Of a stretch of DNA of 34,851 bases, positions 1 to 29,947 are shown in pieces (the first letter of the stretch is position 1; each line of letters begins with the position of its first letter). Origin of the DNA: Rozella allomycis CSF55 (Eukaryota); contig KE561200.1 of the NCBI GenBank assembly GCA_000442015.1, forward strand, positions 62,001 through 96,851, written 5' to 3'. The notes below the pieces were generated by a model, which saw nothing but the letters and a program-made list of their open reading frames with translations, did not search any database and was not told where the DNA came from. The translations under genes and the position numbers were made by a program.

Positions 1-3000
1 AACCAAACCCCATCCATTGACATTCCTTATAGTTAGTTTATGTAGAATCTGTTCAAGTAAATCAGAAACTGTTGTCAATGAACCAACAGCATATTTTTGT
101 GATGATGCGTCCATTGTTTTAATGCAAACAAGAGTTCTTTCATTCTTTATTATTTGTGAAATTTCCAATTCATTTAGAATAAACTTTCTGTTGCCTTTGC
201 CAGTCAATTCTTTAAAATATTCTTCAACTGTATTATTTTTACGTTCAATTAGAAATGATAAAACATATTTATTCATATTCTATTGATATATAATAAAATT
301 GTTACTTTTGGCGGCAAGATGCAATTACACATGCTTGAAAGTATATCCCACAAATGTAGTTCGTAATTGTTAGATTTATCTATAGGTGTATTATTCAATT
401 GCTTAATTAATTGAAAATAAACTTCTTCAGACAAATCTGGATTTTCATGAATCAATTGCAAGAGCTTATTTATAGAAATCAAATAATCATCGACATTTTT
501 AGTTTCACAAATTTTATTTATTAATTTAAATGTTTCAATAGCCAAATTCTTTATTTTAGAACATGAAATTGTTAAACTGTTATCAATAGACTTTGAATAC
601 GTTAAAATAGATTGAATGGCTTTTATTTTAGCATCCATGTCGTATTCATTCACGCCTTGAATCAAAAGAGATTTTTCAGCGTATAAATAGATTGGATAAT
701 TTTCTACAAATTCTTTGTTTTTAATTTCTCTCTTTTCAATTTCATCTTGAGTTTGCTGTTGAACAGAAGAATTATTTAAATGAAGGCCTTTAATTTGTGC
801 TTCCTGTTGAGCATTGGAAATAATATTTGGTTGCAATTCAATTTCAGCCTCAATGGCCTCTTTAAATATTTTTGGCTCTGATGAAATTTCAGTTAATTTA
901 ACATCAACAGATTGTTTATCTTCTTCTTGATGTTTTTGTTTTTGTTCATCAACCACAAAGTCATCCAGAAATGAGAAAATATTGGCCACCTCATTAACCA
1001 AATTGGATTCCATTTTAATTGAATCATTTTGAAAAAGTTCAGGCAACTCATCAATATCATTTCTAAATTGTGTATCATTTGCGGTATTTGTCACGTCAAT
1101 GTTTGAATATTGCTTCCTAATCGCATTGGTCAACTTGAATTGCTGTAATTTATCCATTTTACCGCTTTTATATGCTTTTCTTCCGACGCAACTAAATTGT
1201 TTTCGTTGATTGGCTCATTTTGTTTCCTATTTGGAAATCCTAGTCGAACCCTTGTATAGTGACCCCGGTAAACTTGCTATGAATAAAATTATCTTTTTAC
1301 TTGACTGAATTTTAACAATTGCTTTCTTTTTTATTAAAAATCCTCTATAGCCCAAAAACTTGAGACATTCTAAAACAATGTCATGAAGCTACGCTTACCA
1401 TTTTGAAGGCTACGCATTGCAGAAATCGCTTTACTTCTTTGTCTTACTTTGAGAACAGTTCTAACCCATCCACCAATTCTACTTGAAGCTTCATTCTCAA
1501 TTTCATTTGATACTTGTTCCAATCTAAGATACTTTATAATCGTAAGTGAATTTAACTACACATTCAGTTTTTAGAAATATCTTTGTCTTTCCAATTGCCA
1601 ACTTTTCAGGCAATTTGAATTTAAAANTTAATTCTTGAAAATCGTTGGTGTTTGATTGAATAAACAAGGGATGATATCATTTTAGATTTAATGTATTTTG
1701 ATTACCTTGAACGAAATTCAGCAACAGTGAAACGATAGGGATATCCCAATTTTCTTATTTGAATTGTTTCCATCATCCCAGAGTATCTCATTTGATCTTT
1801 TGAATATTTGGACTTTATTTTACCAATAACCATCTCTGGATTAAATTCGAATGCTTTCTTTTCACTATTTGGCTTAATGCAGCGAATGTAGTGAGGAGTT
1901 GTTGACTTTAAGATATCAACAAGAGAATAAAGCTGAGACTTGAAACTGGACCCACAGCTAGACTTTTTACTTGAAACATTTAAACTTTCATTTAAGCTTT
2001 CATTAAAAATTTCTTTTACAAATTGATTCTTTTTCTATCAAGAATGTTTCTTACTGATGAATTTTCGAAAATAGAAAACAATTCTTCATCAACGGCGTCT
2101 TTATTCTTTTCCAAGAAACTTTCCACTTGATAGAAAACTTCTCCAGCGTAATGAAAAACTCCAAATTGATTCTTTAAAGTTTTTGGTTTTAAAAATCTAT
2201 TTTTATTTCCCAATGATTCTGTAAGTTTTAACAAGAAACTCTCATCTGTTCCCTTGGGAAATTTACACTCTTCATCCAACAATGCCAAAATTCCTTCTTT
2301 ATAATAGATNATGCCAAAATTCCTTTTTTATAATAGATTTAATTTAATACCCATTTTCCCTTCAATCACATCAAGACTTGGCTGGTTGTCGTTAAATGAA
2401 ATTTCTGTCCAATCTAATCCTTCTTGTTGGTATTGTTCTTGTTCAAGTTTAAAAATGAAAAGATTAAAAAATTGTTGCAGTTTTTCATTGGCGTAATTAA
2501 TACACAATTGTTCAAAACTATTAATCTTTTAATTAACGACTTCACAAAATACCTGAAAGTTTTCAAACCCAAAAATGTCCAAAATGCCAATGTATTTGTC
2601 ATCCATTTGTTCACTACTGGTTGAACTATTAATCACATCAACTAGATGCTGAAACAATTGATTGTAAATAAACTTTGCAATTGAATCTCTATTATCCCAA
2701 ATCTTTTAATTTATTCAAATTTAAAATACTTGAATTTCCTTTATTGGTATGAAAGTAGTTTCTCCCCTAACATTCATCTTCTTAAACAACAAAACCCTCT
2801 TAAACTTTTCAAAATCTATTCCCATCGATATTGAGATTTTCTCAACTAAATCTTCATTCGACAACACCAAAGAATCAGATTCATCCTTTGTAAACTTTAT
2901 ATTGCCAAACAACAGAATCGACGACACAAATCTCATCAATTCAACAATCTTCTCTTCCTCAAACCCTAGAATAGTCAACGAAATCTTCAATTCAGAAAAC

Positions 3001-3777
3001 TTTTCACATTCATCAATCCCTTGCACATTCTTTGTTCCATTCTTATTTAAATACTCATAATCTTCAAATGGCAACAGCCCATACATCTCCGCTTCTTCTT
3101 TACTGCATCCAAGTAACATTTGATAGAAAATATGATAATTTCTTTCATTTTTAGCTTGCTTTGAAATTCTACTCTTTTCCAACAAATAATTTTGCATTGT
3201 CGCTCCTTTAATAACATTATTATCATCAAAATGAATCTTTATAAACTTTCCAAATCTGCTCGAATTGTGGTTTCTCACGGTTTTGGCATTCCCAAAACTT
3301 TCCAATACTATATTCGCCTCCATTATTTTTCTAGATATACTAAGACCATTAGTTCGCATTATACTGCTCAGATACTCCAAGATCAACTTTGTGGACTCTG
3401 TTTTTCCAGATCCACTCTCTCCACTGATTATCATTGACTGACATTTCCCAGTAGAAACAAGATTGTGATATGCTTCTTGAGAAAGTGCATAAATGTGCGG
3501 CGGCAAGTCTCGTATTCTTGCACTGGAGTACGCTTCGACATATTCCTTTTACAAATCAATCAAAGATTTACTCTATTGTATATCGGGAGCAGTGAATATG
3601 GGTTCAAAGCAATCAATATGGTTCCACAATACGACTATAACCAGCAAAAACAATCCTTACATAAATTTTCTGTTGACTATATCTACTTCCCAGCGCATTC
3701 AAAATTGAATCATCCGTAAGCAAAGTCAAATTTGTCATATCGTCTATATCTTCCTCATTTGATCCTGCTCCAAACAT
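1..3777 (-). CDS. Unconventional myosin with motor, IQ, MyTH4 and start of FERM domain (myosin VII/X/XXII-like); runs off the left edge; about 13 introns in window
   Basis: Spliced translation starts [17 protein letters not shown] and contains GESGSGKT (P-loop), [41 protein letters not shown] and IQ-like VKIQSIYRG. MyTH4 motif [13 protein letters not shown]...LWDILS follows, then a FERM-like segment ([14 protein letters not shown]) at the edge. Confidence 0.92.
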
Positions 3778-3855
3778 TGCACAATCCAAACAATAACACG
3801 CTTCTTGGAAACAGCAAATAGCATTTCCATTGGCATTGCCAACTTTGCGAATTTT

Positions 3856-4551
3856 ATGAAAGAAAAGATTAGAGTTTTGGTTCTAGGAGATTATGGTATC
3901 TTTTGGTTTGGTAAATAACAAAAGCATCTGGAAAGACAAGTTTGTTGGAAGCGCTTACTGGAGAAAAGCAGCGCAAGATTATGGGGTGCCAGCCCTATGT
4001 ACAGGTACGCTGTTTTAAATTTCGGTATAGATTATAGAAAAAGATTCGAATGTATTGGTCGTGGAATGGCTTGAAGTAGGGATTGATCCTACGGCCAAAT
4101 CTACGCAAAGTAAAGGCTGTGTGTTTCCTTTTGCAGAAGGTAATTTGGATTTGCGGGTGTGTTAGCCTTTGTATGTGTTCATGATTTATCCAATAGGAAA
4201 TCTTTACAGAACATGTGGAAAATTATTGCGGATGGACTGTCATTTCACCGAAGAGTGTCGTCTGCGTCTCATGAGAAGCTATTGCATATTGTAAATACTA
4301 CTGAAAAAGAGGTCTTGCCAATTCTTTTAGTTGGAACAAAGCAAGACAAGGCGAATTTTGATATACTTGTGAATAATCATTTGGAGGCCAATCTGATTGA
4401 AGAATACAAGGCACAGTCATTACATTTAACATGCAAGAATGGAATGATTGATGAATCTATGAGGAATGAAATTTATAAATTTTTGTTTAGTATTGTTAAA
4501 GATACATCCAGCCCCACATTAGTCCATAAGCGAAGAATATTTAAAGATTAG
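3856..4551 (+). CDS. Rab-like small GTPase, RABL3-like; 3 introns
   Basis: MKEKIRVLVLGDY/ASGKTSLL P-loop, then VHDLSNRKSLQN and LPILLVGTKQD, typical of RABL3. GT-AG introns of 29, 26 and 26 nt restore the frame. Confidence 0.75.
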
Positions 4552-4573
4552 AATAAATAGGATTAACAATATT

Positions 4574-6472: not shown

Positions 6473-6556
6473 CTTCTATAAACAAGCCCTGCCTTTTAAG
6501 GAAGAAAACTCTGCCACATGAAAGCGTGATCCGAAATTTATGAAACCAGTATTAAA

Positions 6557-7625: not shown

Positions 7626-7883
7626 AAATTGCCAAGAAGAAAATTCGGAGATCGGGTATGAAAATTCCAGCAAATAGGATAATGCTTAATGAGAAAAGGC
7701 TATAAAGATTAATGAAATCGGTAGCATAGAATATAGATTTTGCGAACCCTTACTTGGTGATTCAATACTATGAGACTTGGAAAATTGGAAATAGTCACTC
7801 GAAAATATGACTTTCCTCCAATTATACATAATTGAAATAAAAAAGACTAGTTTGTCTGGTTAATCCAGACTTTTCCAAAATTG

Positions 7884-9101: not shown

Positions 9102-11025
9102 ATGGTTTTAATGAATGTTGGGGACCCCTGCAATCTCTCGTATTCTATGCTTGAATGTAATCTTGACCCTCGTCTTCCAGTTCATGCCAAGACAAAGGAG
9201 AAAATAGTGATGGTGCCAGTACCACAAATTAAAATGGATGAATATTTTTTCGAATGGCTGTTTTCTACCGACGCAATACAATTATTGGAAGACAACAACA
9301 ATTTTGATACCCAAACAGACGAAATAGAAGCTATAGAAAATAATAATAAACTGGAAGATCATCCCCCGATGTCGCCTAGATTGAAGAGAACTACAGAGTT
9401 GTTGTCATCAGATGTGAAGAGACTGAGTATCCTAGGTAAGAAGAGATTATTTGAATGATAAAGAAGAAAATAGTTTGATAGGAGAAAAGTGCTCCTTTGA
9501 AACCGACAAGGACAAAACAAAAACGATAGACCGTTTCCATTTTCCGTTTGGAAAGCCCATCCCTGAATACGAAAAGAAGAATCGATTAAGAATTATTTTG
9601 GTATGCAATTGATATGCGATTAACAAAGCATGCTGCGAGAGAGAGATTTCCAGATCATGGATTGTCATGCNATTTCCAGACCATGGATTGTCATGCTCTG
9701 AGTTTGCCGCCATTACAAAAATCTGCAACTTGCCAATGTATTTAAATCAGTGTTTATTTAAGAAAATGGAGAGTAATGAAAATGCAAAAGTGAAGTATAT
9801 GCGATTTGCAAAGTAGAAAAATACAAAGATTGTGTTTTAGAGTATATAAAGATTTGTATATGAAATATCATGATGAAGTTTCATTAATATTTGGGATAAT
9901 AAAAAATGACAATAATAAATATTTTACGCGCGATGATTTGGTTCCCTTGATTTCTGAAATTTTGGAAAAACATGCTGGGTTAAAATTTCTGGAGCAATTG
10001 CCAATGTTTCAAGAGAGATATAGTAATTATGTATGATTTGATTGATTTCTGTGGAGACTGTGATTTGTAGAATATTTTTTACGATTAACAAATCATGGAA
10101 TGGAAAGATAACGTTGAATGAGTTTAAGAGCAGCAATTTTGTGCAGATATTGAAAAAGTTGGAACAATATGATGATATAAATGAAGTAAAATTAAAATAT
10201 GAAATTAATGAAAGTGTCGTGATTATTTTAGTTATAAACATTTTTATGTAATTTATTGTAAATTTTGGGAATTGGATTCTGATCATGATTTGAAGATTAA
10301 TAGAGAAGCGTTACTTAAATATGATAATTATGCGCTTTCATCGAAAATAGCAGAGAGAATTGTTGCAGGGTATGGACTAGGAAAGAGCAAGAATGAAGTA
10401 ATGGAATATTCAGATTTTGTTTGTAAAATGAAAATAAATAAAATAAAGGGTTTTTGTTGGCAGAAGAAGATAAAGAGAATCCAAGGAGTATTGAGTATTG
10501 GTTTCGATGCATGGATCTTGATGGCGATGGAATCATTTCTATTTATGAAATGGATTATTTCTTTAAAGAGCAACAAAGAAAGATGGAAATGATGCAAGTT
10601 GAGTCAATTAATTTTCTAGATTGCATTTGTCAAATGTAAATCTTTTTTTTCATTTTTATAGATTTGATTCAGTGGCACCTCAGATACCCCTGCAATTGAA
10701 ATTGAAAGATTTGAAGAAAAGCAAAATAGCGCCACTATTTTTTGATATGTTTTTTAATTTTAGTAAATTTATAGCACATGAGCAGCATGAAGCATCGTGG
10801 GATGTAATGGCAGATAAAGAAATGAGGTAAATCAAATCTATTTGTTTAATTAGTTTGTGGGATAAATTTGCTGAAGAAGAATATGACAAGATGACGTTAA
10901 ATGACGACAATGAAGTTTCTCAAGGGTCTTCTGGAAATCCTTCTGTGGATGATTTTGCAATCTATGAAGGGCTTTGCGTTAATCGAAACTTTAATGAAGA
11001 TGATAAAAACATGACAAATCTTTAA
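9102..11025 (+). CDS. Protein phosphatase 2A regulatory subunit B'' (PR72/PR130 family, EF-hand); about 8 introns; true start may be ATG at 9210
   Basis: [91 protein letters not shown]. Confidence 0.92.
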
Positions 11026-11055
11026 TAAACTATTTTAAAAATCAACTAGATCTCA

Positions 11056-11082
11056 AAATAGATCAAATAGATCAAATAGATC
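11056..11082. repeat. Short tandem repeat (AAATAGATC)x3 between two convergent 3' ends
   Basis: aaatagatc aaatagatc aaatagatc seen directly. Confidence 0.8.
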
Positions 11083-11125
11083 ACAAATCACTCTGTACAA
11101 ATTATAAATTGTGCTATTTATTAAT

Positions 11126-13020
11126 CTAAACAAGTTCTGCATCTTCCAAGTATCGATATTCAAATGTGAATTCACTCTTCCTCCTTTGACACCACGATCC
11201 TTCATAGTCAAAATAAATATAAGTTCCTTGCTCATATTCATCTGTAATCAATTTAGGCTCATCGTGTCGCTGGAACCACGTTAGATATTTCTTATGAAAC
11301 CTCCAACTTTGTCTCTTCAATTCTTTCGCAGCCAAATACCTCCTTTCATCCCCACCAATTACTTACTGTTGATATGTCCTCTGCTGATAATAGAATATAA
11401 AAAATAATGTATCATTTTCAAATTTCTCATAAAGAACCGGATTCTCAAAAATTGGTAGTGGCTGAGTAGGATAATATGGCGGGGTGTTTACAGGATTCTT
11501 TGGCGAATAATTCAAACTTCTATTCATTCAATAATCAAAATTATTACTTTTCAGAATCTACAACGTCTGGAATGTTTTGAAACGATGAATCTACCAGATT
11601 CTGCATCATCGAAAAATCATTCTTTGCTACAAATAATAAACAGTCAACTTTGTTACGTTTCATTCTATTTGATGTTGACATGTAATCAGTCAACAAAGAA
11701 AATGAAAGATTCAAATTCTCACCGTCAGCATCCGAGCCTCTACTCAAAATATTTACAGGTGTTTGCGCTCGCTTTAAATTGGCTTGAATATCATGAGACA
11801 TTAAATGGCTTTCTGTAAGTTTCGAACTATTCGAATCTGGAATCGATGTTGACTCTGAAATTGACGGAGATCCTTCATCTTTCTTTTCAACACGCGGTAC
11901 AATTCCTTTCACTCAATTGATTATTCATTACCCTTGATCTTTGTTGTTGGCGATGGGGTAACTAGTGATGGTGGAAGTTGCTTGTTCCACACTTTATTGG
12001 TTTCATTTGAATTCGACTCTGTTTTCGAACTGATCATGGCAGAATAAGGCACATTCGGTTTGGGTGGTGGCGGAGCAGGCACCGGCGTTGGGGTCAACGT
12101 CTGTTTTATAAGCACCGGAGGATTCGATTCTATTTATCAATATCAAATATTTTTACTCTTTCTTATAATTGGCTCTTTAGGTTTCAAACTACTGGAATTG
12201 TTCAAAGGAGTTTTGCTTGGTTCAACTTCTACAGGCTTCTTCTTGATTTCAGGCTCATCGTCATCCTCATTTAGTTCATCCTCGTCTTCCATATTTAGCT
12301 CTTCATACATTTCTTCATCTTCATCGAAATCAGGCTCTTCATTGTTTTCAAGGTAATATTCAACGCTGTCTTTAATACCAGAAACCTGCTCATTGGTCAA
12401 AATGTCATTCTCCAAGTTTCTCAAAACATGCTCCAACTTGGCTTGATGGAACTTATATCTTTCCACTTTAGCCTCCAACTCTTTCCTCTTTTCAAGTTCA
12501 CTCTTTTTCTGCTTTTTTAGTAACAATGCTTCTATTTCCGCCTCCTTGGCATCTATTTGCGTATTAAGCCGATCAACACACCCATTAATCCACGAACACA
12601 AATCCGACTTTTCTTTTTCCCTGGGATCTATTTTAACAGCTGCGTTCAGTCCTTCTTTCGAATACGCTTTGGTTTTCATTTCGCGCTCGCAAGCCTTATT
12701 TCCATGTTTAAATTACCTTACTTTGAATTTCTCCATCATAGTTTCAATTGTTCGCCTAGATTCCAGTAAACTAGTCTTGTCTTTAATCTCGGTTCCCGCA
12801 ATCCATGTTTTAATTTGATCTCTTAGTCGCTGCAGCTTTTTAATTTCTCGCTTTAAATCATTCTCAAACTTTTCTTTCTGATTTGATGTCGTAGCCGCAT
12901 AAAGTTTATCAAATATTTCTTCAAAAACCGCTATCCCTTCAGTAACTTTTTTTAACGTTTTATCTATTTCGCCTGTCTTATACACCATAAATTTATACTC
13001 TGGAGCTTTCTCGTTGTCAT
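11126..13020 (-). CDS. NOT3: CCR4-NOT complex subunit Not3/Not5 (CNOT3); about 7 introns
   Basis: [50 protein letters not shown], and NOT-box [23 protein letters not shown]...[13 protein letters not shown]. Confidence 0.95.
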
Positions 13021-13099
13021 CTAAAACGTGGAAATTTACAAGAAAAGGTGCGCCGTTCGCAAAGCAAAGCAAATATTTAAAAACAAAATTTTATTGCTA

Positions 13100-13961
13100 T
13101 TACAAATACAATAACTGGACTTTGGGATATGATAACATTAATATTGACCTCCAAAGTAACCTAGATAAGAAACCTGCTGCAAGCACACCATATGCATTGA
13201 ATATATTCACATTTAAGAATGCTTTGATAGTAACCCTTGATTTAATTACCAGATAATGCTTCCGCATTAGATGTTAATACAAATACATTTATCAATGCAA
13301 AATAGTCAAGAGAGTTGTAATCCCAGATAACCATCAAGAGAACAATCAATTTAAAAAAGGAAGATATGATTAAAGATATGGAAATATAATTGTATCTATA
13401 TGGCAATATCATACGTTTTACTTGACAATAATAGTTTGAGACCATTTCATTGTTACAAGACACCAGACAGCGGCCAAAACACCCAAATGAAATACAAGAA
13501 CATCTAAAATTAGAATAACATATTTATATTACCGATTGTTGATATGACAAAAAGATAGATGTATTTAAAAATGAAGCTTGAGGTTTGAAAATCGACAATA
13601 AACCATTTAATATCTCTATTACAAAGCATTATAATGTACAAACATCAAATAGTATCAAAAGCGTCCCTATACGAAAAACAATGCTTTGAAATCCCTTGTC
13701 GACGTATTCCATTCTATTGAAAAGCAGATGCCTATAGACTTGAGATTTATGCAACACCATTTAAGTACTAAACATTACAATTACCATGTCTATGAATATT
13801 ATTATAAATTCCAACTCCACATATGGATCTGCAATAACCCTGCATTTTTCCTCATTGACAAAAATGCATAAACTTACACAAGGAGACAGCCTAATATTTC
13901 CTTTTGAATATTCTGTATATAAACTATTAACTGAATGACCGCATTGCACGCAAATGGGCAT
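13100..13961 (-). CDS. ARV1: Sterol homeostasis / GPI-related ER membrane protein Arv1; about 6 introns
   Basis: MPICVQCG...NIRLSPC/EKC..ADPYVE zinc-binding Arv1 homology domain, IDM/VLHKSQVYRHLLFN, LFDVYIKW, LLMVIWDY. Confidence 0.9.
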
Positions 13962-13996
13962 TTTTTAAATTTTGGTAAAGAAATTTCATAAAGAGT
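13962..13996. promoter_or_regulatory. 35-bp divergent intergenic region (ARV1/CWC22), putative bidirectional promoter
   Basis: ATGs at 13961(-) and 13997(+), with two AAATTT elements in between. Confidence 0.6.
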
Positions 13997-16355: not shown

Positions 16356-16459
16356 ACTCTAAATAAACAATACTTTATTATTGATTAATCTAGTCAAAGA
16401 TATAAATGAAAGAAGTAAACTTTTATTGAGTATTTCCCTCAACCTGAATATCTTCAAAA

Positions 16460-18301
16460 TCAAAAGCTATAAAATTTGACCTTTGCAATCAACTTTTCAT
16501 TAAAGATAAAATTTCCCTGAAGATTTAAATGAGATAAATTTGATGTTTTCATGCTATCAAACAAATGAGTAGCGCCTAAATCGTGGATCTGATTGCATTC
16601 CAAGTCAAGAGCCCTAAGCATGCATGATGGTAATATTTGTGAAAAACGGATAGCTGTTGCATCAGTAAGTAAATTCTTTGACAAGTCAAGAACATGCAAC
16701 CTTTCAATAAGAGTGAACAAAGATTCAATATCCTCATCACACAATCTGTTTCCAGAGAAATCAATTTGTTTCAAAGATATTGGCAAACTTAAAGATGCAA
16801 AAGCATGCTTCAAACTTGGCTTTATTTGAAACTTGTCGTAAAACGATTGTTGTTGAAGTCCAGACACACATAATTCTTCAAGTTGTAAACCTCCTAGATT
16901 GAAAAAGAATGGTTTGATGTCCTGACTTGGCATTCCTTCCATGCAATCAAAAGAAAGTGATTTCAAGAATATTTTATTGCGACTCTTGAATATATTGATA
17001 ATTTGGTTTAAACTTCCTGCTTGAAATGATCTCGCTTGAACAGAAAGTGTTGTTAAATAATTCTTCTTAAATCTCAAGGCTTTTGATAAAGCTACAAAAC
17101 TCGTTTTCCTGATTTCTTTTGTTGCAACGCTCAATGATTGCAAAAAGTAAAGTCTTTTGCCCAACAATTTAAACGCTCTTTCATCAATATCGTAAATTGA
17201 AACAGTAAAGTCCCTTATTCGGCTTTTGTGCAGTCGGTTGAATAAACAGTACAGTCCATTATTAATTTGAGTTGTATTGCAGTACCTTCTATTCAATCCA
17301 ATCGACATTGTTGTGACTTTACACTCTTTAAGTGCTTTTGAAAGATAGATGAGCCATTCGCTGTCAAAATTATTGTCAGATAAATCAAGAGTTGTAACAG
17401 GTAGAGTTCTTATACAATCAACCAATTCAAATGGTAACATGGTCTTAATTCCAGTCAATGATAATACAGAAAGCCTATCTAAACATAAAAATGATGAAAT
17501 ATTGATATTGCAATTAATGTTGCACATTTCTACATTCTTAATACGTCTCGATAACTTTAAAATATCCAAAAGTTCTGTATTTTTGCAATGAGATTTCAAA
17601 TTCCAAAAAACAACTCTCTCCAATTGCTTAAAACAAGGGTCATTAAATTGATACTTTCCACATGGAATATTACCATCCGTAAATGTTACTGATTTCAAAG
17701 TGTCCATTGAACTAAGCGATTCTATAAACTGTTTAAACCCACGGCTTTTTAAAAGTGAGCGCCCAATAACAATTTCTTTGATTGCAGACTTTTTCATCGC
17801 TACTTGAAGCTGACCAATCTCGTCACCACGAAATTCCAAAAGTGAAAAGTCAATGAAAGTTACTCTTGAATTTGGAAGCTCATTTATGATCTCTTTAATC
17901 TTTTTGGAAGATATCGCACGTATTTCTTCCTCTTCGATATCATCGTCAAGTCTGGTAAAGTCAAAATGCAATATGAATCCAAATTTCTCAGGGAGATTTA
18001 ACGGTATAATCTTTTTCGAAAAGTATCTCATGTCTGATGCTACAATACATTTTAGCAAAGAAAGGGCATCTTTGGACCGACTAATGATTCTTGCCTTGAC
18101 TTGTGAAAACTTGGTGTCTTTAAGATTCAAATTTGGAAAGACATCGCTAAACTTTTCAATTTTCAGTTGTCTTTGGAGGTTCAATAACGGCCTGATCATC
18201 GTAAAAAATTTTCGGTTCGTCATTGAAAGGATCAAAAGGTCTGCAGCCTCCAACTGAAAGAAAATGATACGGATTGTTTCACTTGATAATACCGAGAGCA
18301 T
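16460..18301 (-). CDS. Intronless F-box-like plus RNI-type leucine-rich-repeat protein (613 aa)
   Basis: N-terminal LSVLSSETIRIIFFQLEAADLLILSMTNRKF fits the F-box pattern. LRRs include LDLSDNNF, IDFSGNRL, LDLSKNLL, LDLECNQI and LNLQGNFI. Confidence 0.8.
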   Translation of the reverse strand: MLSVLSSETIRIIFFQLEAADLLILSMTNRKFFTMIRPLLNLQRQLKIEKFSDVFPNLNLKDTKFSQVKARIISRSKDALSLLKCIVASDMRYFSKKIIPLNLPEKFGFILHFDFTRLDDDIEEEEIRAISSKKIKEIINELPNSRVTFIDFSLLEFRGDEIGQLQVAMKKSAIKEIVIGRSLLKSRGFKQFIESLSSMDTLKSVTFTDGNIPCGKYQFNDPCFKQLERVVFWNLKSHCKNTELLDILKLSRRIKNVEMCNINCNINISSFLCLDRLSVLSLTGIKTMLPFELVDCIRTLPVTTLDLSDNNFDSEWLIYLSKALKECKVTTMSIGLNRRYCNTTQINNGLYCLFNRLHKSRIRDFTVSIYDIDERAFKLLGKRLYFLQSLSVATKEIRKTSFVALSKALRFKKNYLTTLSVQARSFQAGSLNQIINIFKSRNKIFLKSLSFDCMEGMPSQDIKPFFFNLGGLQLEELCVSGLQQQSFYDKFQIKPSLKHAFASLSLPISLKQIDFSGNRLCDEDIESLFTLIERLHVLDLSKNLLTDATAIRFSQILPSCMLRALDLECNQIHDLGATHLFDSMKTSNLSHLNLQGNFIFNEKLIAKVKFYSF

Positions 18302-18437
18302 AAGAAATTTGTTTGCAAACCTACTGTAAAGGCGCAGTCAATCTGACAGGATGAAGCTTTACAGTTTAAAAAGTCAAAATTAATAACTAATGCAAATTAT
18401 TTAAACAAATTTATATGTATTTATTACAGCTCGTATT

Positions 18438-20106
18438 TTAATTCAATAGAAATTGTTGAGCCTGTTCTTTAGTGCCTTCTGGATTATCCAGTTGCCATTC
18501 AATCATTTTATTCGAGTAAAAAGAAATTTGTGTTTTTTCTATGCCTAGGACATCTATTAATTCATGACCCTATGATTTTCTTCATGTAACTCTTACATTT
18601 AATAATGGTCGCATGTCCCAGCATCCATCCAAGTTAAATAATTCAACGGATCTGAAAATCTCCTTGTTTATTTGCACAATCTCTTGAAAGCTTTTTATGG
18701 AATGTGAAACTTCATGAATAGAAGCCATCAAAAGGCACATAGGCCACAAGGGTCCTACGCTTCTTAAAAATAGACCAACATATTTTCTGGACTTTTGCAC
18801 CGGGAAATTATCCATAAATGATTTGGTATTTAAAAGTCCCGTTACGCATACCTTTAAATTTTTAATGTCTTTATTGGTAGCCTTTAAAGAATGAGTCGCT
18901 ATAAATGAAACTAGAGGAATTTCATTTCTTTTCTTTCCAGATGCGTTATTAACAAAATAGCCATGCAATGGCAATAATCCCAATCCATACATACAAAGGC
19001 GTTGGTCAATTGAATCGATTGATTGTTTAAACGGTTGACTGTCGATAAATCTGAAAGTGAAAATAAATTTATCAAGCGTACTTTTTATAATTTTTAAGAT
19101 ACAAGTCCACAAAACAATCAAATTTTTCTTCTGGGCAATCAACTGCATTGAATGTGTTAGAATCTTCGACTAATGAATCAAGTTTAAGTTCACATCCCCA
19201 TCGAAACACATTGGAACACATTTTTGTTTTGACAATCAAGTTTAAAGAATCAGTCCGATTTTTATGTTTAAACATTTTATCCAGCTCGGTTCGTACTCTT
19301 TCACGGCTCACTTTATCGTGAAACGCTTCGATAACACTCTTATCTTCAACTGCTTCAAAGATTTCTTTTTCTATCGAATAAGAAAATCTAGAGGCGAACC
19401 TTTTTCCATGATAGATAAACAGTTACCTTATTGTTCGTAATATTCTTAATGGATCGTCGAGAAAGGTTTCTTTTGGTGGCAAAGGTGTTCTAATAATTCG
19501 GTTCTTCAAATCTTCTAAACCTCTTTTTGTGAAGTCTTCCACAATCTTTGTGTGAATGTTGAAAAATAATGCATTTATTGTAATATCTCGGCGAAGAGCA
19601 TCTTCCAGAGGTGTACCAAATGTAACATGGGATGGTATTCTTGAATTGTCAGCATATCAACTATAGAAATAAATTAAGGAATTACTTTTCACTTCTCAAG
19701 TTAACAAAATCGATTTGATGTCCAAATAATTTAACAGTTGCTGTTTCCAGATGCTTACTTTTATCTGGATTACTTCCAATAACGCCGATTGAAATATGCG
19801 GCAACTTTAATTCATTCACATAAGAATCAAGCTTTTTGGCAAACTGTTCACCCGTCATGGTATCTAGCGCTACATCAATATCGTCACAAGATATGCCCAG
19901 TAACTTTCTCAAAGTGAAAAGCATCTTACTTTATCACGGACCCAGCCTCCAGCGATTCTACATACTACGTTCAACTTGTAATGTTTGACACAGTTAACAA
20001 GAACTTGACAAATTTGTTCTTCTGTTTTGTTCAAGATTATCATATTTTCAGGCGTCCGTAAGTCTTCGGGGCTTAGTTTGAACTGTGATCTATAAATATT
20101 TGTCAT
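18438..20106 (-). CDS. CCA1: CCA tRNA nucleotidyltransferase (class II); 5 introns; start codon approximate
   Basis: RIAGGWVRDK/LLG..DDIDVALD, NPDKSKHLETA, DFVNLRSE, EDALRRDITINALF, TFLDDPLRILR, VSRERV, EWQLDNP. Confidence 0.94.
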
Positions 20107-20233
20107 TTGATTAAGCGGATCATATGCATTCAAAATTTACAACGAATCAGTGATTCATGATTGAGATTTATTTGTGACAAAAACTGCCCTTTAAGGAAAT
20201 TAAAAAATTTACAGTGCAAGCCATTATCTGTCA

Positions 20234-21377
20234 ATGAACACAAAATATAGGCTAGTAGATCTTTTTGCGCAAGGTTCTTTTCAAGAAGTAATATCTAAGA
20301 AGTTATTTGAAACTTTTCACGAGAAGTTAATACAAGCGGACTCATACTTTTGCTTGGCGGAATACCAAAAGGCAGCTGTAACGATACTACAATAATTTAA
20401 AAGGGCTTATATTTTAAATTAACACGTGAGACCTCTGGAAAGCTTGTCTCATTGACTAGACTGGCGCAAGTAGGACTGCAAATGCCAAAGTTTACGGTGG
20501 AAGATAATGGCAAAGAGATTAGTCTTTTAACATATACTAAGAATATGATGGATCGATTAAATCATAAAAAGTAAATGTCTTCATCGTTCGAGAAAGAAAT
20601 AGTTCAATTATTGATAACAGATTTCATTATTTCAGAGGAAAACTAGAACTTTACAATCATAATTTTGAAGCAGCGCTGCCAGTATTTGAGCATATTTTAC
20701 CAAAAATGGACTCTTGGCTTCCGATAAATATCTTTGCCAATTATTACAAAGGCGTTTGTCATTTGCTAATGGGTAACAAAATTCAATAAAACCAAAAATA
20801 GATAACGATAAAAAATCCATGAAATGTTTTGAAGAGACGATTAGAGAGTATATGACATCAAAAGAAAAAATAGTCAATGATATGCCATTAATTTTCGATG
20901 AGGATATTATTGAATCACATGGACCGTTAAATAACGATCGTAGGATTTTTCGATGTATTAAATTCAGATATTATGGCTGCTAATTGCTTTGTGAATGCAG
21001 TTCTAAATCACTCAGCTTTATCTACCTCTATGGAATTGATAGATTATGATTTCATTATAACTCATTTAAAAGCCATTTTAACAGAAGAATACAGTAACCA
21101 TCTTACCTTTAAGCAGCGCGCCTTCGCGCATTATTTGATAGCAACTCTAATCTCTCGACAGAGTGACTACGAAGATTCCAAGAATCTTGCAAGGTTTCAT
21201 TTTACAAAATCAATGACTTGCGACGCTAAACTGTTAAATTCGGTTAATGCCAATGCAGAATGCGAACGCTTTTTCGCTTTCAATAACTTTCTTAAGACTG
21301 ACTTACTCATGTCAAAACTTTTAAGTCAAAATGCAAGACAAATGCCATTGAAATCATTTAACATTATGATTAATTAA
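20234..21377 (+). CDS. Hypothetical helical-repeat (TPR-like) protein; about 4 introns
   Basis: Exons join in frame through 26-29 nt GT-AG introns. TPR-like segments: ADSYFCLAEYQKAA, YYKGVCHLLM..DKKSMKCFEE, AHYLIATL. Confidence 0.65.
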
Positions 21378-21421
21378 TAAATTAGTTTATTATTGGGCAT
21401 TAGCTTTTAAGATGGGGTTTT

Positions 21422-21658
21422 CTAGGTTTGAGAGGTTGAAGTTGCGCTAATATACAAGACATTATTTCCTCTGACAAAAGCATCGCCATATTTATTTTTC
21501 AATTGTCCGTTCACATATTCTTCAGTGTTTTCCAAAACTAAATTCATGTAGCCGTCTAGGCAAACCAAGATTCCTTTGTAATCGACATTTGAGTTTAGTT
21601 TAACGTGTACTTGTTTACCAATTACAAGTCGCAAAAAATCAGAAGGAGTTTGAGCCAT
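21422..21658 (-). CDS. LSM6: U6 snRNA-associated Sm-like protein Lsm6 (intronless)
   Basis: MAQTPSDFL...VKLNSNVDYKGILVCLDGYMNLVLENTEEYVNGQLKNKYGDAFVRGNNVLYIS. Confidence 0.95.
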   Translation of the reverse strand: MAQTPSDFLRLVIGKQVHVKLNSNVDYKGILVCLDGYMNLVLENTEEYVNGQLKNKYGDAFVRGNNVLYISATSTSQT

Positions 21659-21694
21659 CAAATCCAAAAAGTTCAAACTTTTGGAAAATTCACA
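21659..21694. promoter_or_regulatory. 36-bp divergent intergenic region (LSM6/RAD23), putative bidirectional promoter
   Basis: ATGs at 21658(-) and 21695(+). Contains the inverted repeat TCCAAAAAGTT-CA-AACTTTTGGA and an AAATT element. Confidence 0.6.
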
Positions 21695-22854
21695 ATGAAA
21701 ATCACCCTTCGTACTCTTCAACAAAAGTCTTATCCTTTGGAAGTCGAGCCAGAATCAACTGTTTCTACTTTGAAAACTAAAATTGAGGGAGACTTTGGTC
21801 ATCCTGTAGCTTCTCAAAAATTGATATACTCTGGCCAAATATTGCAAGACGACCGCACTATCGCCAGTTACAATGTCAAAGAGAATGATTTTTTTGTTCT
21901 TATGATTACAAAGGTAAATTTCTTAGAAGCCCTTGTGATAGGCACCTATGAAAGCGCCGGCTGCTGTGTCAACACCATCAACGCCGGTAGCAAGCAATTC
22001 AAGCGTACCCGTGGCAAAAACTTCAAATCCCCCCGAAACATCCGGAAATGTGGCTTCAACTGAAAGTGCTACTGCTGCTGGAAATGCCCCCAGCCAACCC
22101 CATCCAAGTCAAATGTTTGGAGGTAAAAAAATGTATATAGTTACATTTAGTTTCAAGGGAACAATATGAAGCAATGTTGAACAATCTTGTTGAAATGGGT
22201 TTCCCAAAAGAACAAGTTGTTAGTGCATTGAAGGCTAGCTATTTCAATGCTGACAGAGCAGTAGAGTTTTTGATGAACGTAATCTTGTTTTTTAGTTAAA
22301 TAGCAGGGAATTCCTAGTGATGCCGCTGAAAACAACCAGTCACCACCAACTGCAACGAATCCAGTGACACCTGCAGCAACTGGGAATGCAGTCGCACAGG
22401 AAAGTTTGCCTTCAAATCCTAACGCACTGAGTGGAATTTCTTCTGACCCCCAATTACAACAGTTAAGGCAAATTGTTCAATCCAATCCGCAAGTTTTGCA
22501 GCCATTGCTTCAGCAATTAGGAATGAACAATCCCGAATTAATGCAAGTAATAGACCCACCTTTTGTAATAAAGGCAATAAGTGAAAATCCAGAGGCTTTC
22601 TTACAAATGCTTTCCCAGCAAGGTGAAAATATGGAAGAATACGATGAAGGTACTGAGCAGGAAGGCGTTCAATACATTCAAGTTACTCCAGAAGAAGAAG
22701 AAGCCATAAATAGAGTAATAACTCATTTTAAAATTCATTTTAGTTAACGGCACTTGGATTTGACCGTGCCAGAGCAATAGAAGCCTTTTTTGCTTGCGAC
22801 AAAAACGAGACTATGGCTGCCAATTATTTATTTGATAGCATGGATGAGCAATAA
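21695..22854 (+). CDS. RAD23: UV excision repair / proteasome shuttle protein Rad23 (UBL-UBA-XPCB-UBA); 5 introns
   Basis: [13 protein letters not shown] with [13 protein letters not shown]1 EMGF...[13 protein letters not shown]-binding [23 protein letters not shown]2 EAINR/LTALGF...[14 protein letters not shown]. Confidence 0.96.
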
Positions 22855-22981
22855 AGGTCTCTTTTAATTTTATTACTAAGATAGCTTTTAAATTAAACAA
22901 TACATGTCGCAAATGTCGTGTCGTTAGGTCCCCATCGAAATCGAAATGTTTGATAAAATTTATCCTGTCCCTGAAAGTGTA

Positions 22982-23054
22982 GCCTTCTTAGCTCAGTTGG
23001 CAGAGCGCATGCCTAGTAAGCATGAGGTCGAGTGTTCAAATCCCTCAGAAGGCA
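22982..23054 (+). tRNA. tRNA-Thr (AGT)
   Basis: Acceptor stem GCCTTCT/AGAAGGC-A, D-arm TAGCTCAGTTGGCAGAGC, anticodon stem CATGC-CT AGT AA-GCATG, T-loop TTCAAAT (one T-stem mismatch), and a T5 terminator about 10 nt downstream. Confidence 0.93.
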
Positions 23055-23096
23055 TATGTTACCTTTTTGGACTTTGTTTTCTATTTGTAAACAATA

Positions 23097-26000
23097 ATGC
23101 AAATGCAAGTTTTGCAGTCTACTAATATTCCCTGGAGCAATATTCTTTCATTTAACTTATTGAAACAACGAAACGATCCTATTTTTGATGAATTGATTGA
23201 CTCATTAATTGACAGCAATGCAACAAAGGATGATTTAAAGCGTTCTATTGATGAATGGGTTAACCTGTTTAATGTAAAGGGTTAAAGGATACAATATAGT
23301 TTATGAAGCAGGGTCTTATCCTTCGCACAGAGTATTTGGCCACGGCAGATGAAGAGATCACCCAACTTCAGGTATAAGTTTCCATAGAACTGGAAAGAAT
23401 GAAATTGATGCCCTAAAAATAAAATCAAGCCCTGACCAGATTTTTTTCGACAGAAATATCTCGGATTATGAAAGTCGACTGCAGGAATTGCAAAACGAGC
23501 TGACCGTATAACATAATATTGTACCTTTCCCATAGAATGCCCAAATTCAAAATTCAAAATATGAAGACCAAGTTATGGAACTGAAAGAAGAAAACAGAAG
23601 GTCCCAAGGTATGCAATGAAACTTCTACCATAACAAGATCTTTTGTGTGAAGAGTTGTCTAATGAGAATAAGACATTGGAGAGTGAAATTAAATCACTAG
23701 AAGACACTTTGCAGAAAGAAAGACTTGATTCTTTGAACCAATTACAAGTAAATGATTGATATTGCCAATATTATGAGTTTGAAACTAAAATTGAACGAAT
23801 ATGAACTCAAGTTGGATCAGTCAGAAAAGGAAATAAAGAATTATAAAAGCTCTCTTCAAAAAATAAAGGATCAGCTATCTTTAAAGAAGGAGCAAGATGA
23901 TGAATACAAAAAGATAATTAGAGACAAAAATTCAGAGGCATCTAGGTATTTGAAAGAAATCGAGGACACAGTACGCAAATACGACTCACTGAAACTGGAA
24001 AATGATAATAATATACTCTGTCTAAAGAAATTGAGGGACGATTATGAAAAGTAAGAAAGAAAATTACCTTACATCTTGAGTTTGAGAAACGAAAAAAGAG
24101 AACTTGAAATTGTCGTACAAGAAAATGACACATTGCTAAGATCATTAGAGAATGACAAGCAATCTTTAGAACGGAAATTAAATGAAGCATTGGCTAAACT
24201 GGAAGAGAGAAACAACTTGGATGAAGTTGTATTTGATGAAATAAAAGAGCAAATTGCGGAATGGACTGTAAAGATACTTTTGTATTTACCAAAGGATGTT
24301 CTAGAAACAAAAGAAAAGGAGATATGCCGATTGATTGATGAAAACGAGCGATTGAAAAATGATATGATTAAAAAGAATATAGAGTTAGAGGAATATGGAT
24401 TTAATCTACAAACAATCGTTGAAAAGGACGAAAAGATAAAGGAGCTTTCTGACGCACTTGATGATGCATATCAAGACTTTGAGGCCCTTGGAGGGACCAT
24501 GGTGAATATAGAATCACAAAGCAGGGAAAGAATATCTGAAAATGGAGAAATTAATGATTTGGCAAATAAATTGCGACATCAAATAAAATTAAACGAGGAT
24601 TTAGAAAGTCGTTGTGTACAATTGGAAACAGAAATAGTTCATTTTCGTTCAATGATTTACCGATACGAAAGTGGTAAATATTTATAGTTAGTTGAAATAG
24701 GTGAGTATGGATTGACTGAAGCAAACCATGAAATCTCCAAATTAAAGAAATCAATTCTAACGAAAGATAATGAAATAAATGAGCTTGTGCAAAATGTAAA
24801 TCATTTAGAACACGAAGTAAAACTTGATATGGAATTAAAGAGATCAACGACCTGGTCGAAGAGAATTTAGCGATAAAGGAAAAATACAATGTCAATGAAA
24901 ATGAATTAAGGAAAACAACTAGAGCATTAAGGGCTTTAGAGAGTGAAAAATTAAGGGCGGAAAACTATCAGTTGAGAAAAGAAATTGACGACTTGGAAGA
25001 AGAAAGGATCAAGCTGAAGAATCAAATCAGAGTCAAAGTTAAAGAAAAGGCTGAAGGTGCATTAAGCATTGGAATGAAAGTTACGGATATATTATATCTT
25101 GAAGAAGGAGTTCAACATGAACCCCAAGCGGAAGAAAATACGAAAAAGTTTGTTCAAAATGAACAGTTAAGGTTTTCAGACAAGAATATAATGACAGACA
25201 ATTTAACACAAATAAAAGATGATAAAAAAGTAACTAATTCATTCGTACAGTCCTCATTTGACAAATTTGAAAAAGCCATACAATCTGAATTGTCGACGTC
25301 CGAGCAAGAAATCCAAACGGTATTTTTTCAAAAGGGCCAGTCAATTCAAACGATTGAGCAAGGAGTCGGAGATTCTAAATATATCAAAGAGCTTGAAGAT
25401 CGATATGAGCAAATTAAAGAGAAATTAAGAAATGTTTTAAACAAGAGAATTCAAGAAGATGAAGAAAATAATTCTAGATTCATCGATTTGACTGACAAAG
25501 TAACCTTCAATTTAAAGTAAAAGAGTATGAAAATGAAATTAACCAATTGAAACAAGTGATAGAGAGTTATTCAAAAGGTGAACATCCCATAAATCAATTC
25601 TATAAAGCTTCCATGGAAACCCTGGAAGAGCAATTGAAATACAAGGAAAAGATAATTTTCAATTTAGAGAAACTATTGAAAGAGGCGCAAGNAGAGACAC
25701 TATTGAAAGAGGCGCAAGAATCGGTTTATGAAAAATTGGAAACTCGTAAATAAATATGCTTTCATAGAGTTAGAAAAAAATGAATTAAAGAATTACTATG
25801 ATACTTTAAAGGAGAAAAAAAATCTCCTTGTATCTCAAAGCCTGGTTGAGAAACCAGTTCAACTAGAACCTCAAAATAACTTGTAAACAAACAAAAGTTT
25901 CATAATAGCAACGACATTCGAATGCTAAAACAAGATTTTCATCAAACTGTAAAAATAAAAGTAAAGCAAAATGATCTTAATTAAAGGAATATGAAATCGA

Positions 26001-27568
26001 AACCCTTCAATTAACAATAAATACCCTGGAAAGAGAATTGAATTTAGAAAAACAGAAACATTCTTCATTAAATAAAGCCTTAGATCAATTGAAACATCAA
26101 ACAGACGAAAAAGATCTTGAAATTAAGGACTTGCAAAGAAAGGTAAGCACCTATAACGTTATGTAAAAGGTGGCCTTCTTGAAGCAAAAAGGAAAGAGTG
26201 AATTAGAGAAAGAAAAGAAGGATCTAGAAAGAATATCTTTAGAAAAGGAAAAGCTTCGTGTTGAAAATGAACAAAGAATATTGAAGAGATCAAATTCTTC
26301 ATTAACTGAAATCTCTAAATACAAGAGAGAAATGGAAAAGATGAAAGAGGAAATCAAAGAAAAAGAAAATTTGATCAATGAACTTTACCAAATAAAGGAA
26401 CAAAAAGATAAAATGGCCAATGATTTGGTAAAGAAGAGTGTTTTTGCCACAAATTGTTCAATTAAAATATCCAAATTACAAAATCAAATTTCTGATCTAA
26501 AAGAGGAAAATGCTAGAATAAAAGAAAGAGGTAATGTTCTATTGTGAATTTTCAGAGTTGATCTTAATGAAAAAGAGAGACCAGAAACAACAAGAGTAAA
26601 AACTTGGGAAGCCGAAAGAAAACTTCAAAGAAAATTAAAAACATGTCAAATTCAATTAGAAGAAACTGTATCAAAGTTAAGATCGAAAGAATCTGAAATC
26701 AATTCTCTAAAGGACTTGATTCAAAAACAAGCAACACCGTCAAATAAAAATGAAGTTGAAAAATTTAATCATTTACTAAAATCAATCGAATCTAAAAGTT
26801 TGGAAATCAAAAACTTAAAATCCCAATTGGATGCCCTGGAAAGCAAAGACTTTCACGACGAATTGAAAGCATCGAAAATCAAAGATTTAGAATCACGAAT
26901 AGAACATTTAATGGATATTTCCGAATCGTCGCGTGAAATTAAAGACTACTTGACAGAGATCGGCAATTTAACAAAAGAGGTTGTAGAATGGAAAAGTAAA
27001 TACGAAGCTGCCCAATTCGAGCAAACCAAAAACCAAAAAGAAATTGACCGCTTAAATCATAATATTAAAGATCTAGAAGGTCTTCTATTCACTAAAGAGA
27101 AGGCCAAGAAAATGTCTCTCGAATTGGAATCATTGAGAAAGGAAAATACAGAATTAAAAAATTGTCTTCTTGAGACTTCTAAATTTGAAAAGTAATGAGC
27201 GCTTTTCATAAATAATAAAGCCTTCAAGAAGAAAACCAAAAACTAATGTCTGAAATTTCTGTATTGAAATCTAAACTCCAGTCGTTTACAGGGTCTTCTA
27301 CAGTCGCACCCAAGAAGAAATGGGAATTCGAAGTAAGATTTTAATTAAATATTTAAACTAGATCGAGTCACTTCAATCGCAAGTTCAAAGTCTGTCAGAA
27401 AAATTAGAGAAACCCAAATCAGACGATTTTGAAAGTTTAAGACAAAAGGTTCAAAAATATGAAGACTCTAATGTTTTGTTGATCAACGAATTGAAAGAAA
27501 TCAGGGATAGTTATCAACTAATTAAGGCAGAGAATCTTAGACTCAAACAAGCCAAAAGTTTTGAATAA
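23097..27568 (+). CDS. CEP290: Centrosomal/ciliary transition-zone protein CEP290-like long coiled-coil; about 17 introns
   Basis: YESG/EYGLTEANHEISKLK...KDNEINELVQNVNHLE and LRAENYQLRKEIDDLEEERIKLKNQIR match the conserved CEP290 block as I recall it (YESGVYGL...RAENQILLKEIESLEEERLDLK). N-terminal NIPWSNIL and C-terminal WEAERKLQ also fit. Confidence 0.8.
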
Positions 27569-27656
27569 TCAATAAAAAATATTTCATTTTGTCTTCGCAT
27601 CCTTCTTATTTTTTCCATTTGTTTCCGCGAAATATCCGATATCTTAATTCAAGATC

Positions 27657-28821
27657 ATGCAAATTACGTTCGTCTTGGATAATGGACAGTTGAACACTAT
27701 AGACGTTGATAAATCCTTGAATGTAAGACTAAGAATTATTGCTTACAGATTTCAAGTTTAAAAGCACTTTTGGAGTCTGAAATGAAGATTCCACGCAGAG
27801 AAATCGTCTTAATTTACAACGGGAAAGAGATATCCAACAACGATCTTACCTTGGAACATGCCGGGATATCGAATTTCGACGTAATAACAATCCGTAGAAA
27901 GCAAAGTCAAATCCCTTCAGCACCTAACGTAACTGGAAGTAATCAAAATACGTTACAAAATATGTTACAAAACCCAGAACTAATGAGACAATTTCAGCAA
28001 ATGGTAAAACGTTTAATTCTGTATTTTAGATTTCAAACCAACAGATGCCAGGATTAGGAACCAATGATAGCATGAGCTTAGATTATCAAAAAAGGTTGGA
28101 AGAAAATATAAGAATGCAAAACGTTCAACAAAATATGGAATTGGCTATGGAATATTATCCGGAAATGTTTGGAAGTATTACCATGTTGTACGTAAATTGT
28201 CAAGTAAACGGAATTAACATCAAAGCTTTTGTTGATTCTGGGGCCCAAATGACAATTTGTAAGAAAAGTGTTTTACTTTTATTAGTGAACAAACAAACGG
28301 CTGAAAGATTGGGATTAATGGAGCTCCTAGACACACGATATCAAGGGAAAGCAGTCGGTGTTGGAACGGCCAATATTATAGGCAGGATTCACGCCGCAAC
28401 ATTGAAAATCGGAAATCAGCATTTGATGTGCTCGTTTACAGTAATGGAAGGCCAAGGTGTCGAATTTCTTTTCGGTTTAGATATGCTAAAAAGGCATCAA
28501 GTAAAAAAAGCATATTTCACCTGAAAGGCTAAAATTGATCTTGAAAAGAATTGTTTGAACATAAATGGTGAAGAAATCCATTTTCTTCCAGAGTCAGAAA
28601 TACCATTAAGTGGTTTAGCCAAGTCACCTTTACCATCACCTCAAGTGAAAGACCATCCAACCTCATCATCAAGTAAATCAACGTCCTTTGATGAAGACAC
28701 AATTCAAAATTTAATAAACTTGACTGGTGCAGGGAGAGATAATGTTATAGAAGCGCTGAAATTAGCTCAAGGTAATCCAGACCTTGCAGTTAGTTATCTC
28801 ATGGAACTTCATAATAAATAA
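27657..28821 (+). CDS. DDI1: DNA damage-inducible protein 1 (UBL - retroviral-like aspartic protease - UBA); 4 introns
   Basis: AMEYYPEMFGSITMLYVNCQVNG..KAFVDSGAQMTI, GVGTANIIGRIH, FLFGLDMLKRHQ, and C-terminal UBA AQGNPDLAVSYL. Confidence 0.96.
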
Positions 28822-28830
28822 AATTGATTT

Positions 28831-29925
28831 TTATTTTAAAAATCTTTTCAGACATTCTAAATTCCCACAATCACGAGCAACATCCAAAGCCGTCTTCCCT
28901 TGATAATCCTTTTGTTCAAGAAAGTGACTGCTAAAATGTATATCCTTGAAAATTTGTTTGAATATTGTGTCGCATGAGCTAATTAGCGCTAGAAAATGAA
29001 GAACAGTGGACTTTGAAAAATCTTGGCTATTTAATATCCACTGCGATTCATCGTTGTATCTCTCTCTTCTTTTATCAATTATCAATTGAAGCGTAGCTGG
29101 CATTTTATTCTTGACTGCAAGCAATACAGCGTTACATCCATCAAATGCTCTAGCATCCATGTCAACGTTGAAAGTTAATAATTCTTTAACGAAAAAAGTA
29201 AATCCATTTTCCACTGCTAATAAAAATGGTGTCCTGCCCATCCTATCACACGATTCTAGCCACCTCTTGTCTTTCTCGCAACAAAGTTTGATGACACTCC
29301 AGTATCCATATTTAGCTGCTTGATAAAGTGGCGATACCTTGTGAGAAAATGAATTATTCAAGTAAACAGATCTCCATTTTTCACTAAAATCATCAGCATT
29401 CCCTTTGATAATGTCCCATTTTGATATAGCGGGAAATGTATCAATATTAATAAGAGCAATAGCAGAAACGGATAATTTTGCAAACAATAGTCTTCCAAGT
29501 TTTCTTTTAGTCAATCCATAGATAACAGGTATATTTTTTGACTTGCATTTTTCAATGATGCTGTATACCGAACAGTAAAAGTGATCTATCCTTGAAGACT
29601 TAAGAAGATACCAGCTTCAGTATTTTTAGACAACTGGATATTGGTAGCCATGATTACACCAAACACCCTTAGTTGCGATTTTTCAAGCTGCTTCTGAATT
29701 TCTTTCATACCCACGATAACATATCTTTCGTTGAGGTTAGGATAACTTACTTGTTTTGATCATTAAGAAGGTTACATTTATGCAAGGCTGTTTGGGATTG
29801 CCAGACCTCGTTTATTAGATCAAAGAGTTGGTTTTCAAAGGTTTCAGTTATGATTTGTGTGACATACCAAAAAAGTATAAAAATTAAAGTTACGGTTGAA
29901 TTACTCGACAATTTTGTTCTTTCAT
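28831..29925 (-). CDS. SECIS-binding protein 2 (SBP2)-like L7Ae RNA-binding domain fused to C-terminal ankyrin repeats; 3 introns of 26 nt
   Basis: Spliced: (MKEQNCRVIQP)YVTQIITETFENQLFDLINEVWQSQ...KYVIVGMKEIQKQL...VIMATN...SIIEKCKSKNIPVIYGLTKRKLGRLLFAKLSVSAIALINID, then ankyrin motifs SPLYQAAKYG, GRTPFLLAVENG, GKTALDVA. Introns at 29586-29611, 29725-29750 and (non-canonical) 29868-29893. Confidence 0.72.
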
Positions 29926-29947
29926 AAAATTTCCAAAAGAATCAAAA

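Follow-up and report, generated by a model that had tools for sequence, protein, structure and literature searches.

Six probable GT-TG introns of the ultra-short class in a stretch of Rozella allomycis CSF55 DNA

The stretch of Rozella allomycis CSF55 DNA analysed here (34,851 nucleotides (nt) of contig KE561200.1, hereafter the window) has about 33% G+C and is dense with genes split by very short introns. At six places in this window a segment of 26-29 nt that opens with GTAA closes with TG where AG would be expected, and we consider it probable, at roughly 0.8, that these six segments are real GT-TG introns, ordinary major-type introns of the ultra-short class. They are probably spliced constitutively at the UG. 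The six are as follows.

1678-1705, minus strand: intron of a myosin (MyTH4) gene, 28 nt, GTAATC...AAAATG
10023-10051, plus strand: intron of the PP2A-B'' gene, 29 nt, GTAATT...TTCTG
13758-13784, minus strand: intron of the ARV1 gene, 27 nt, GTAATT...AAATG; a multiple of three with an in-frame TAA inside
19658-19685, minus strand: intron of the CCA-adding enzyme gene (CCA1), 28 nt, GTAATT...ATAGTTG
23748-23775, plus strand: intron of a long coiled-coil gene, 28 nt, GTAAAT...TTATG
29868-29893, minus strand: intron of an L7Ae-like/ankyrin gene, 26 nt, GTAACT...TTTTTG; it follows the first exon

An original prediction, made from the letters of the window, had placed six GTAA...TG segments of 26-29 nt at these positions and had held that their excision restores a conserved motif or the reading frame. 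On re-reading, all six were found exactly there, with GTAA at the 5' end, TG at the 3' end and hence G at position -1 in every case. Exact removal of the segment joins open frames at all six sites and regains a conserved motif at four (myosin, PP2A-B'', ARV1 and CCA1), the latter checked against sequences from outside the window. As judged from these alignments, protein homology calls for the exact loss of the segment from the mature message at each of the four loci, and the AG-based alternatives are predicted to damage conserved protein segments. The standard code is valid in the window, with open reading frames (ORFs) of up to 633 amino acids (aa); ciliate-type DNA elimination and a ciliate code were considered and dropped, given these frames and the protein matches to Rozella.

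In the CCA-adding enzyme, the upstream exon aligns with PDB chain 9kma_A as far as residue 167 and the downstream exon from residue 169, while on 9ns4_A the exon ends fall at residues 127 and 129, the single residue between the exons being the split codon. Eight of 80 metagenome homologues were examined, and all eight were uninterrupted at the intron site; the E and the Y at the junction are separated by a single residue in seven of them and by two in the eighth. An internal AG that lies 3 nt upstream of the TG would end the intron at 25 nt and keep the frame, and we take it to be passed over because its use creates an in-frame TGA. The top protein match of the exon is the public model P0001 from R. 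allomycis CSF55 (96% identity), which takes a 46-nt GT-AG intron (19640-19685) and in doing so loses six conserved residues, YADNSR, though the DNA encodes them in frame. Of the other public models cited below, P0122 and P0296 likewise carry the name R. allomycis, and P0121 and P0146 are annotated proteins of the window itself; these names point to R. allomycis or a nearly identical strain.

19640-19657, minus strand: 18 nt coding for YADNSR; they fall inside the 46-nt intron that P0001 takes

Close relatives were also sought in metagenomes, where the best match was 71% identical, so that orthologous introns could not be compared.

The ARV1 exons abut exactly on the Pfam Arv1 profile, the upstream exon covering positions 1-48 and the downstream exon 49-90. 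A hidden Markov model built from 49 homologues of 180-450 aa, drawn from the best 150 of 203 matches, gave the TG model 164.1 bits without a gap, against 138.1 bits and a deletion for a 30-nt GT-AG intron from another donor. The original prediction had claimed that at five of the sites no AG at the normal intron length keeps the frame; this holds for acceptors paired with the same donor only, since the 30-nt ARV1 alternative, at 26 bits below the TG model, keeps the frame from its own donor. The public model P0146 starts from the ARV1 donor and removes a 171-nt intron, skipping VLHKSQVYRHLLFN, the most conserved motif of the family, which is encoded just downstream of the TG.

13632-13757, minus strand: downstream open frame of ARV1, encoding VLHKSQVYRHLLFN...; 13632 is the limit of the open frame

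The same gene holds a 27-nt GT-AG intron at 13851-13877 (minus strand) that has no in-frame stop; P0146 reads through it and gains a 9-residue insertion.

For the myosin gene, the joined model is gapless over the junction EFRS/RYHPL and on to GKTKIFLK against all six myosins compared; the downstream exon on its own had no match in PDB or Pfam. No AG lies within the intron, and the first to follow it ends at +44. In the public models P0121 and P0122 the myosin donor opens an intron of 182 nt (1524-1705), which leaves out the exon that follows the TG; that exon is itself followed by a canonical GT-AG intron of 28 nt (1532-1559).

1560-1677, minus strand: myosin exon of 118 nt, RYHPLF...GKTKIFLK, skipped by the public models

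Here too a 27-nt GT-AG intron without an in-frame stop lies nearby (1797-1823, minus strand); P0121 reads through it (a 9-residue insertion), P0122 removes it, and the PDB alignment has a 9-residue gap exactly at that place.

At the PP2A-B'' site, the Pfam family EF-hand_13 is matched to position 50 by the upstream exon and from position 52 by the downstream exon, with one split codon between, and three PDB chains give 60/63 (4i5j_A), 134/137 and 142/145, the second number in each pair being the second residue of the downstream exon. A canonical alternative had been predicted at this site and is present.

10031-10056, plus strand: alternative PP2A-B'' intron, canonical 26-nt GT-AG, used by the public model P0296, with one extra residue (ERYSNYTV)

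Given the PDB and Pfam positions, the TG model of PP2A-B'' is gapless and the GT-AG alternative adds one residue. The preference for TG is weaker here than at CCA1, ARV1 and myosin.

The two other sites are placed by their reading frames. In the coiled-coil gene, the donor of 23748-23775 is the sole GT ahead of an in-frame TGA, and the three ends that keep the frame are TT (25 nt), TG (28 nt) and GT (31 nt), with no AG among them; an AG 2 nt downstream of the TG is out of frame. The intron of the L7Ae-like gene has no AG inside, and the nearest AG downstream ends at +61. Its first exon is short.

29894-29925, minus strand: first exon of the L7Ae-like gene, 32 nt, MKEQNCRVIQ plus 2 nt

The ATG at 29925 is the only one able to reach the downstream L7Ae frame, for which removal of the 26 nt is needed, and the exon starts 22 nt past the end of a tRNA-Val gene. 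An exon of this gene searched in PDB gave no match. The names that the original prediction had attached to the two genes, CEP290 for the coiled-coil gene and SBP2-like for the other, could not be verified, and no Pfam family supports either. In the latter gene (28831-29925, minus strand) a short L7Ae-like stretch at the N terminus is followed by ankyrin repeats (Pfam Ank families).

The introns among which these six stand were described by gene modelling that allowed only GT donors. Of the 60 GT-AG introns in a first model, 58 measure 25-31 nt, and the two outliers, of 46 and 54 nt, were both errors; its donors were GTA in 58 of 58 and GTAA in 43. This model was too conservative and was replaced by a refined one, which gave 90 AG introns in gene models of at least 150 aa, 89 of them of 25-31 nt, a range made tight in part by the length prior of the refined model; a peak at 26-27 nt is present in the weaker first pass and in a crude ORF scan as well. 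The 90 include the rejected alternatives at CCA1 and PP2A-B'', so that the share of TG comes to about 6 of 94 (about 6%), close to the 5% first estimated by eye. At the 5' end the introns read GTA, followed by A more commonly than T. An earlier internal AG is skipped in 34 of the 90. The 3' consensus of 89 aligned introns reads A(T/A)AG. A stands at -4 in 57 of them and C at -3, where a pyrimidine is usual, in just five, and a pyrimidine tract is not visible in the modelled introns of the window. The U12-type donor RTATCCT occurs in none of the six TG introns and none of the 89 AG introns, and the U12-type branch site CCTTRAY, whose usual place is about 10-26 nt from the 3' end, in one of the six (CCA1, at intron position 7) and again in none of the 89.

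TG makes up 6.4% of the dinucleotides in the window, and it ends the segment at four of the four junctions fixed by homology, more than chance would give in our judgement. A search that reached 70 nt around each site and admitted GT-AG introns of 18-60 nt with at least 25 open codons on either side turned up no alternative at the myosin, coiled-coil and L7Ae-like sites. An AG lies within 19 nt of the TG at four of the six sites, the myosin and L7Ae-like introns being the two without. When the gene model was made acceptor-agnostic, it chose the exact TG at myosin, CCA1 and the L7Ae-like gene and a frame-equivalent end 3 nt shorter at PP2A-B'' and the coiled-coil gene; ARV1 lay outside the gene models of this run. 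Two of its picks that end in AA were rejected, one (2324-2350) as lying on an N flanked by tandem duplicates and the other (9738-9766) as lying about 70 nt from a duplicate-flanked N and cutting coding sequence that looks continuous. Two more picks belong to short models antisense to long ones.

In a one-dinucleotide-at-a-time control, TG gave the top gain, 14.4 nats, with three picks that are all 28 nt long, the coiled-coil site among them. The picks of the other dinucleotides mostly reused these donors and almost always gave a different length (25-58 nt), and what was left over consisted of 2324-2350 (the N artefact), 9601-9627 (beside another), 33831-33856 (antisense) and 1419-1447 (GC, with a gain of 0.6). 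Crude counts of ORF-bridging segments gave no enrichment of TG; they consist largely of antisense ORFs and of real introns with shifted ends, a noise in which no enrichment could stand out.

The original prediction had also expected standard gene finders to mis-annotate such genes, and they do: the public models P0001, P0121, P0122 and P0146 lose conserved segments, and P0296 gains one residue. At three loci the public models start from the same donors as the TG introns and run to introns of 46, 171 and 182 nt. It could be proposed that these models are right, that a distant AG or another donor is used, and that the proteins truly do without the segments. Consistent with this, all four AG alternatives keep the frame, and the one at PP2A-B'' is a normal 26-nt GT-AG intron that costs a single extra residue. 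On the other hand, what these models drop (YADNSR, VLHKSQVYRHLLFN and RY..L...GKTKIFLK) is encoded in an open frame and corresponds to the motifs that the families conserve best, introns of 46, 171 and 182 nt stand apart from the 25-31 nt seen in 89 of the 90 models, the 30-nt alternative at ARV1 scores 26 bits lower, and the coiled-coil and L7Ae-like genes have no AG alternative at all; we therefore hold this proposal very unlikely. It was likewise reasonable to consider that the introns are decaying, their AG mutated to TG, with poor or cryptic splicing and genes that are impaired or becoming pseudogenes. Cells normally cannot do without the CCA-adding enzyme, the exons on either side are intact and conserved, and six cases in 35 kb are too many for recent damage. 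Human AG-to-TG mutations are reported to activate nearby AGs and not the TG (PMC2374985), which would fit such decay; on balance we hold the idea very unlikely.

The same segments might also be removed in some other manner, by way of shifted boundaries such as GG...AT, a U12-type spliceosome or a non-spliceosomal route. A one-base shift leaves the mRNA unchanged at myosin and ARV1, and the CCA1 intron contains CCTTAAT. Set against this, no boundary shift preserves the sequence at CCA1, all modelled introns start with GT (the only donor that the model permitted), the U12-type donor is absent from all six, and the branch-site-like motif stands in one of six only, where it adjoins the donor; such routes appear to us highly improbable. 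The least likely of the alternatives is an error of sequence or assembly that hides a true A at -2. The window holds four Ns, three of them flanked by duplicates that look like assembly artefacts, and in run X1 the sequence is 27 nt shorter at 25672. Six independent and identical A-to-T errors are, however, unlikely. Contigs of runs X1, X2 and X5, from three studies, span 9960-29959 without joints at a depth of 75-300, and at the five TG sites compared, all but myosin, no indel or difference on the terminal TG appears among the 40 of 226 contig differences listed. The X1 contig over ARV1 differs from the window at five positions; every one of them is among those listed and falls elsewhere. The nearest N to the myosin intron is at 1627, 51 nt off and without flanking duplicates, and the other TG sites have none within about 350 nt.

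Several points weigh against reading the six segments as GT-TG introns. At the coiled-coil and L7Ae-like sites the support is that of the frame alone, and the gene names are unverified. The one-base shift to GG...AT gives an identical mRNA at myosin and ARV1, where the fit of the protein cannot separate the two. The contig comparison covers five of the six sites and 40 of 226 differences, the best-matching contigs may derive from the assembly's own reads, and assembly artefacts are present at three of the four Ns. The length prior of the refined model bears on the narrow length class, and the 89 aligned introns showed no clear branch-point motif, their single signal being the enrichment of A at -4. 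Metatranscriptome X10 gave matches of only 20-26 nt to the window, and no RNA run was found that covers the stretch.

The three artefacts share one form. The Ns at 2310, 9671 and 25692 lie between tandem copies of 25-28 nt that are one base apart (2282-2338, 9646-9696 and 25666-25718), as if the assembler had set out both branches of a variant "bubble" one after the other; the duplicates break the frame or add residues in the myosin, PP2A-B'' and coiled-coil genes. The 27 nt missing from run X1 at 25672 correspond to one such copy, and we rejected them as an intron polymorphism. A contig of run X5 (9960-17553) has 99 differences in 7.6 kb, about 1.3%, which indicates a diverged strain in the public data. 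Two tRNA genes lie between the protein genes, tRNA-Thr(AGT) at 22982-23054 (plus strand) and tRNA-Val(AAC) at 29948-30021 (minus strand), and in every DNA run the tRNA-Thr region shows loose ends and a higher depth, as a gene present in many copies should.

If the six are GT-TG introns, a simple mechanism can be put forward. An intron of this length would barely span the catalytic centre of the spliceosome, and what fixes the 3' site in the second step might then be chiefly how far it lies from the 5' site or the branch point, with G required at -1 and, at -2, A preferred and U tolerated. Choice of the 3' site largely by distance, which the original prediction had put forward as well, is what we infer here; it fits both the range of 25-31 nt in 89 of 90 introns and the AG skipped in 34 of them. 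That part of the prediction thus stays conditional, while its description of the segments as TG-ended introns (four fixed by homology, two by frame only) is supported indirectly and that of AG-only mis-annotation directly. Going further, we lean slightly towards the view that splicing in Rozella employs a ruler that needs only the G at -1, and that UG is the sole constitutive acceptor in about one in twenty introns genome-wide, possibly in connection with the loss or change of an AG-reading factor.

The 3' AG is among the most constant rules of major-type splicing. A free-standing TG in about 6% of introns, if true, would make Rozella a natural system for the study of 3' site choice, in which the weight of distance versus sequence, the role of the -2 base and the dependence on AG-reading factors could be addressed. 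If the distance ruler holds as well, hundreds of published gene models would be wrong, and nature would have supplied a case of 3' choice independent of AG. Because of the AG rule, conserved segments are lost or altered in at least four of the public models for these 35 kb, and proteome studies of this key lineage, which stands beside Microsporidia, would inherit such errors. A literature search, whose reach did not extend to the original genome paper or to supplements, found no description of TG acceptors or of splice-site usage in Rozella. A 2026 paper curated Rozella models with unpublished RNA-seq and places them in its Table S2; its main text is silent on non-canonical introns (PMC13393502).

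It remains to set the window beside systems already described. Ultra-short, length-constrained introns are found in ciliates, nucleomorphs and microsporidia, and those of Rozella are like them in their narrow length class (here 25-31 nt), their richness in A and T and their lack of a pyrimidine tract. A class so narrow, short and AT-rich suggests a spliceosome that may work near its minimal span. To our knowledge, the ultra-short introns of ciliates, nucleomorphs and microsporidia keep the 3' AG. U12-type introns have a variable 3' dinucleotide and a 3' site set by distance from the branch site; the introns described here differ from them in that none of the six has the RTATCCT donor and that both length and donor match the major class of the genome. 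Appendicularians and euglenids are rich in non-canonical introns on which standard gene finders fail, and in them the variation chiefly affects the donor or both ends, whereas here only the -2 position of the acceptor changes, and only to T.

The closest comparison as regards the acceptor itself is with human U2-type introns, in which TG serves as an alternative 3' splice site behind a GT donor (Szafranski et al. 2007, PMC2374985). According to that study, no human intron relies on TG alone: an AG in use is always present no more than 28 nt away, and only about 0.01% of candidate motifs work (PMC2374985). The human sites resemble the six segments in the GT donor, the TG end, the G kept at -1 and, as is probable for Rozella, the use of the major spliceosome. 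Measured against the same description, the Rozella segments differ in that TG ends about 6% of introns, that using an AG close by would disrupt the frame or cost conserved residues, and that the myosin and L7Ae-like introns have no AG either inside or within 43 and 60 nt downstream, respectively.

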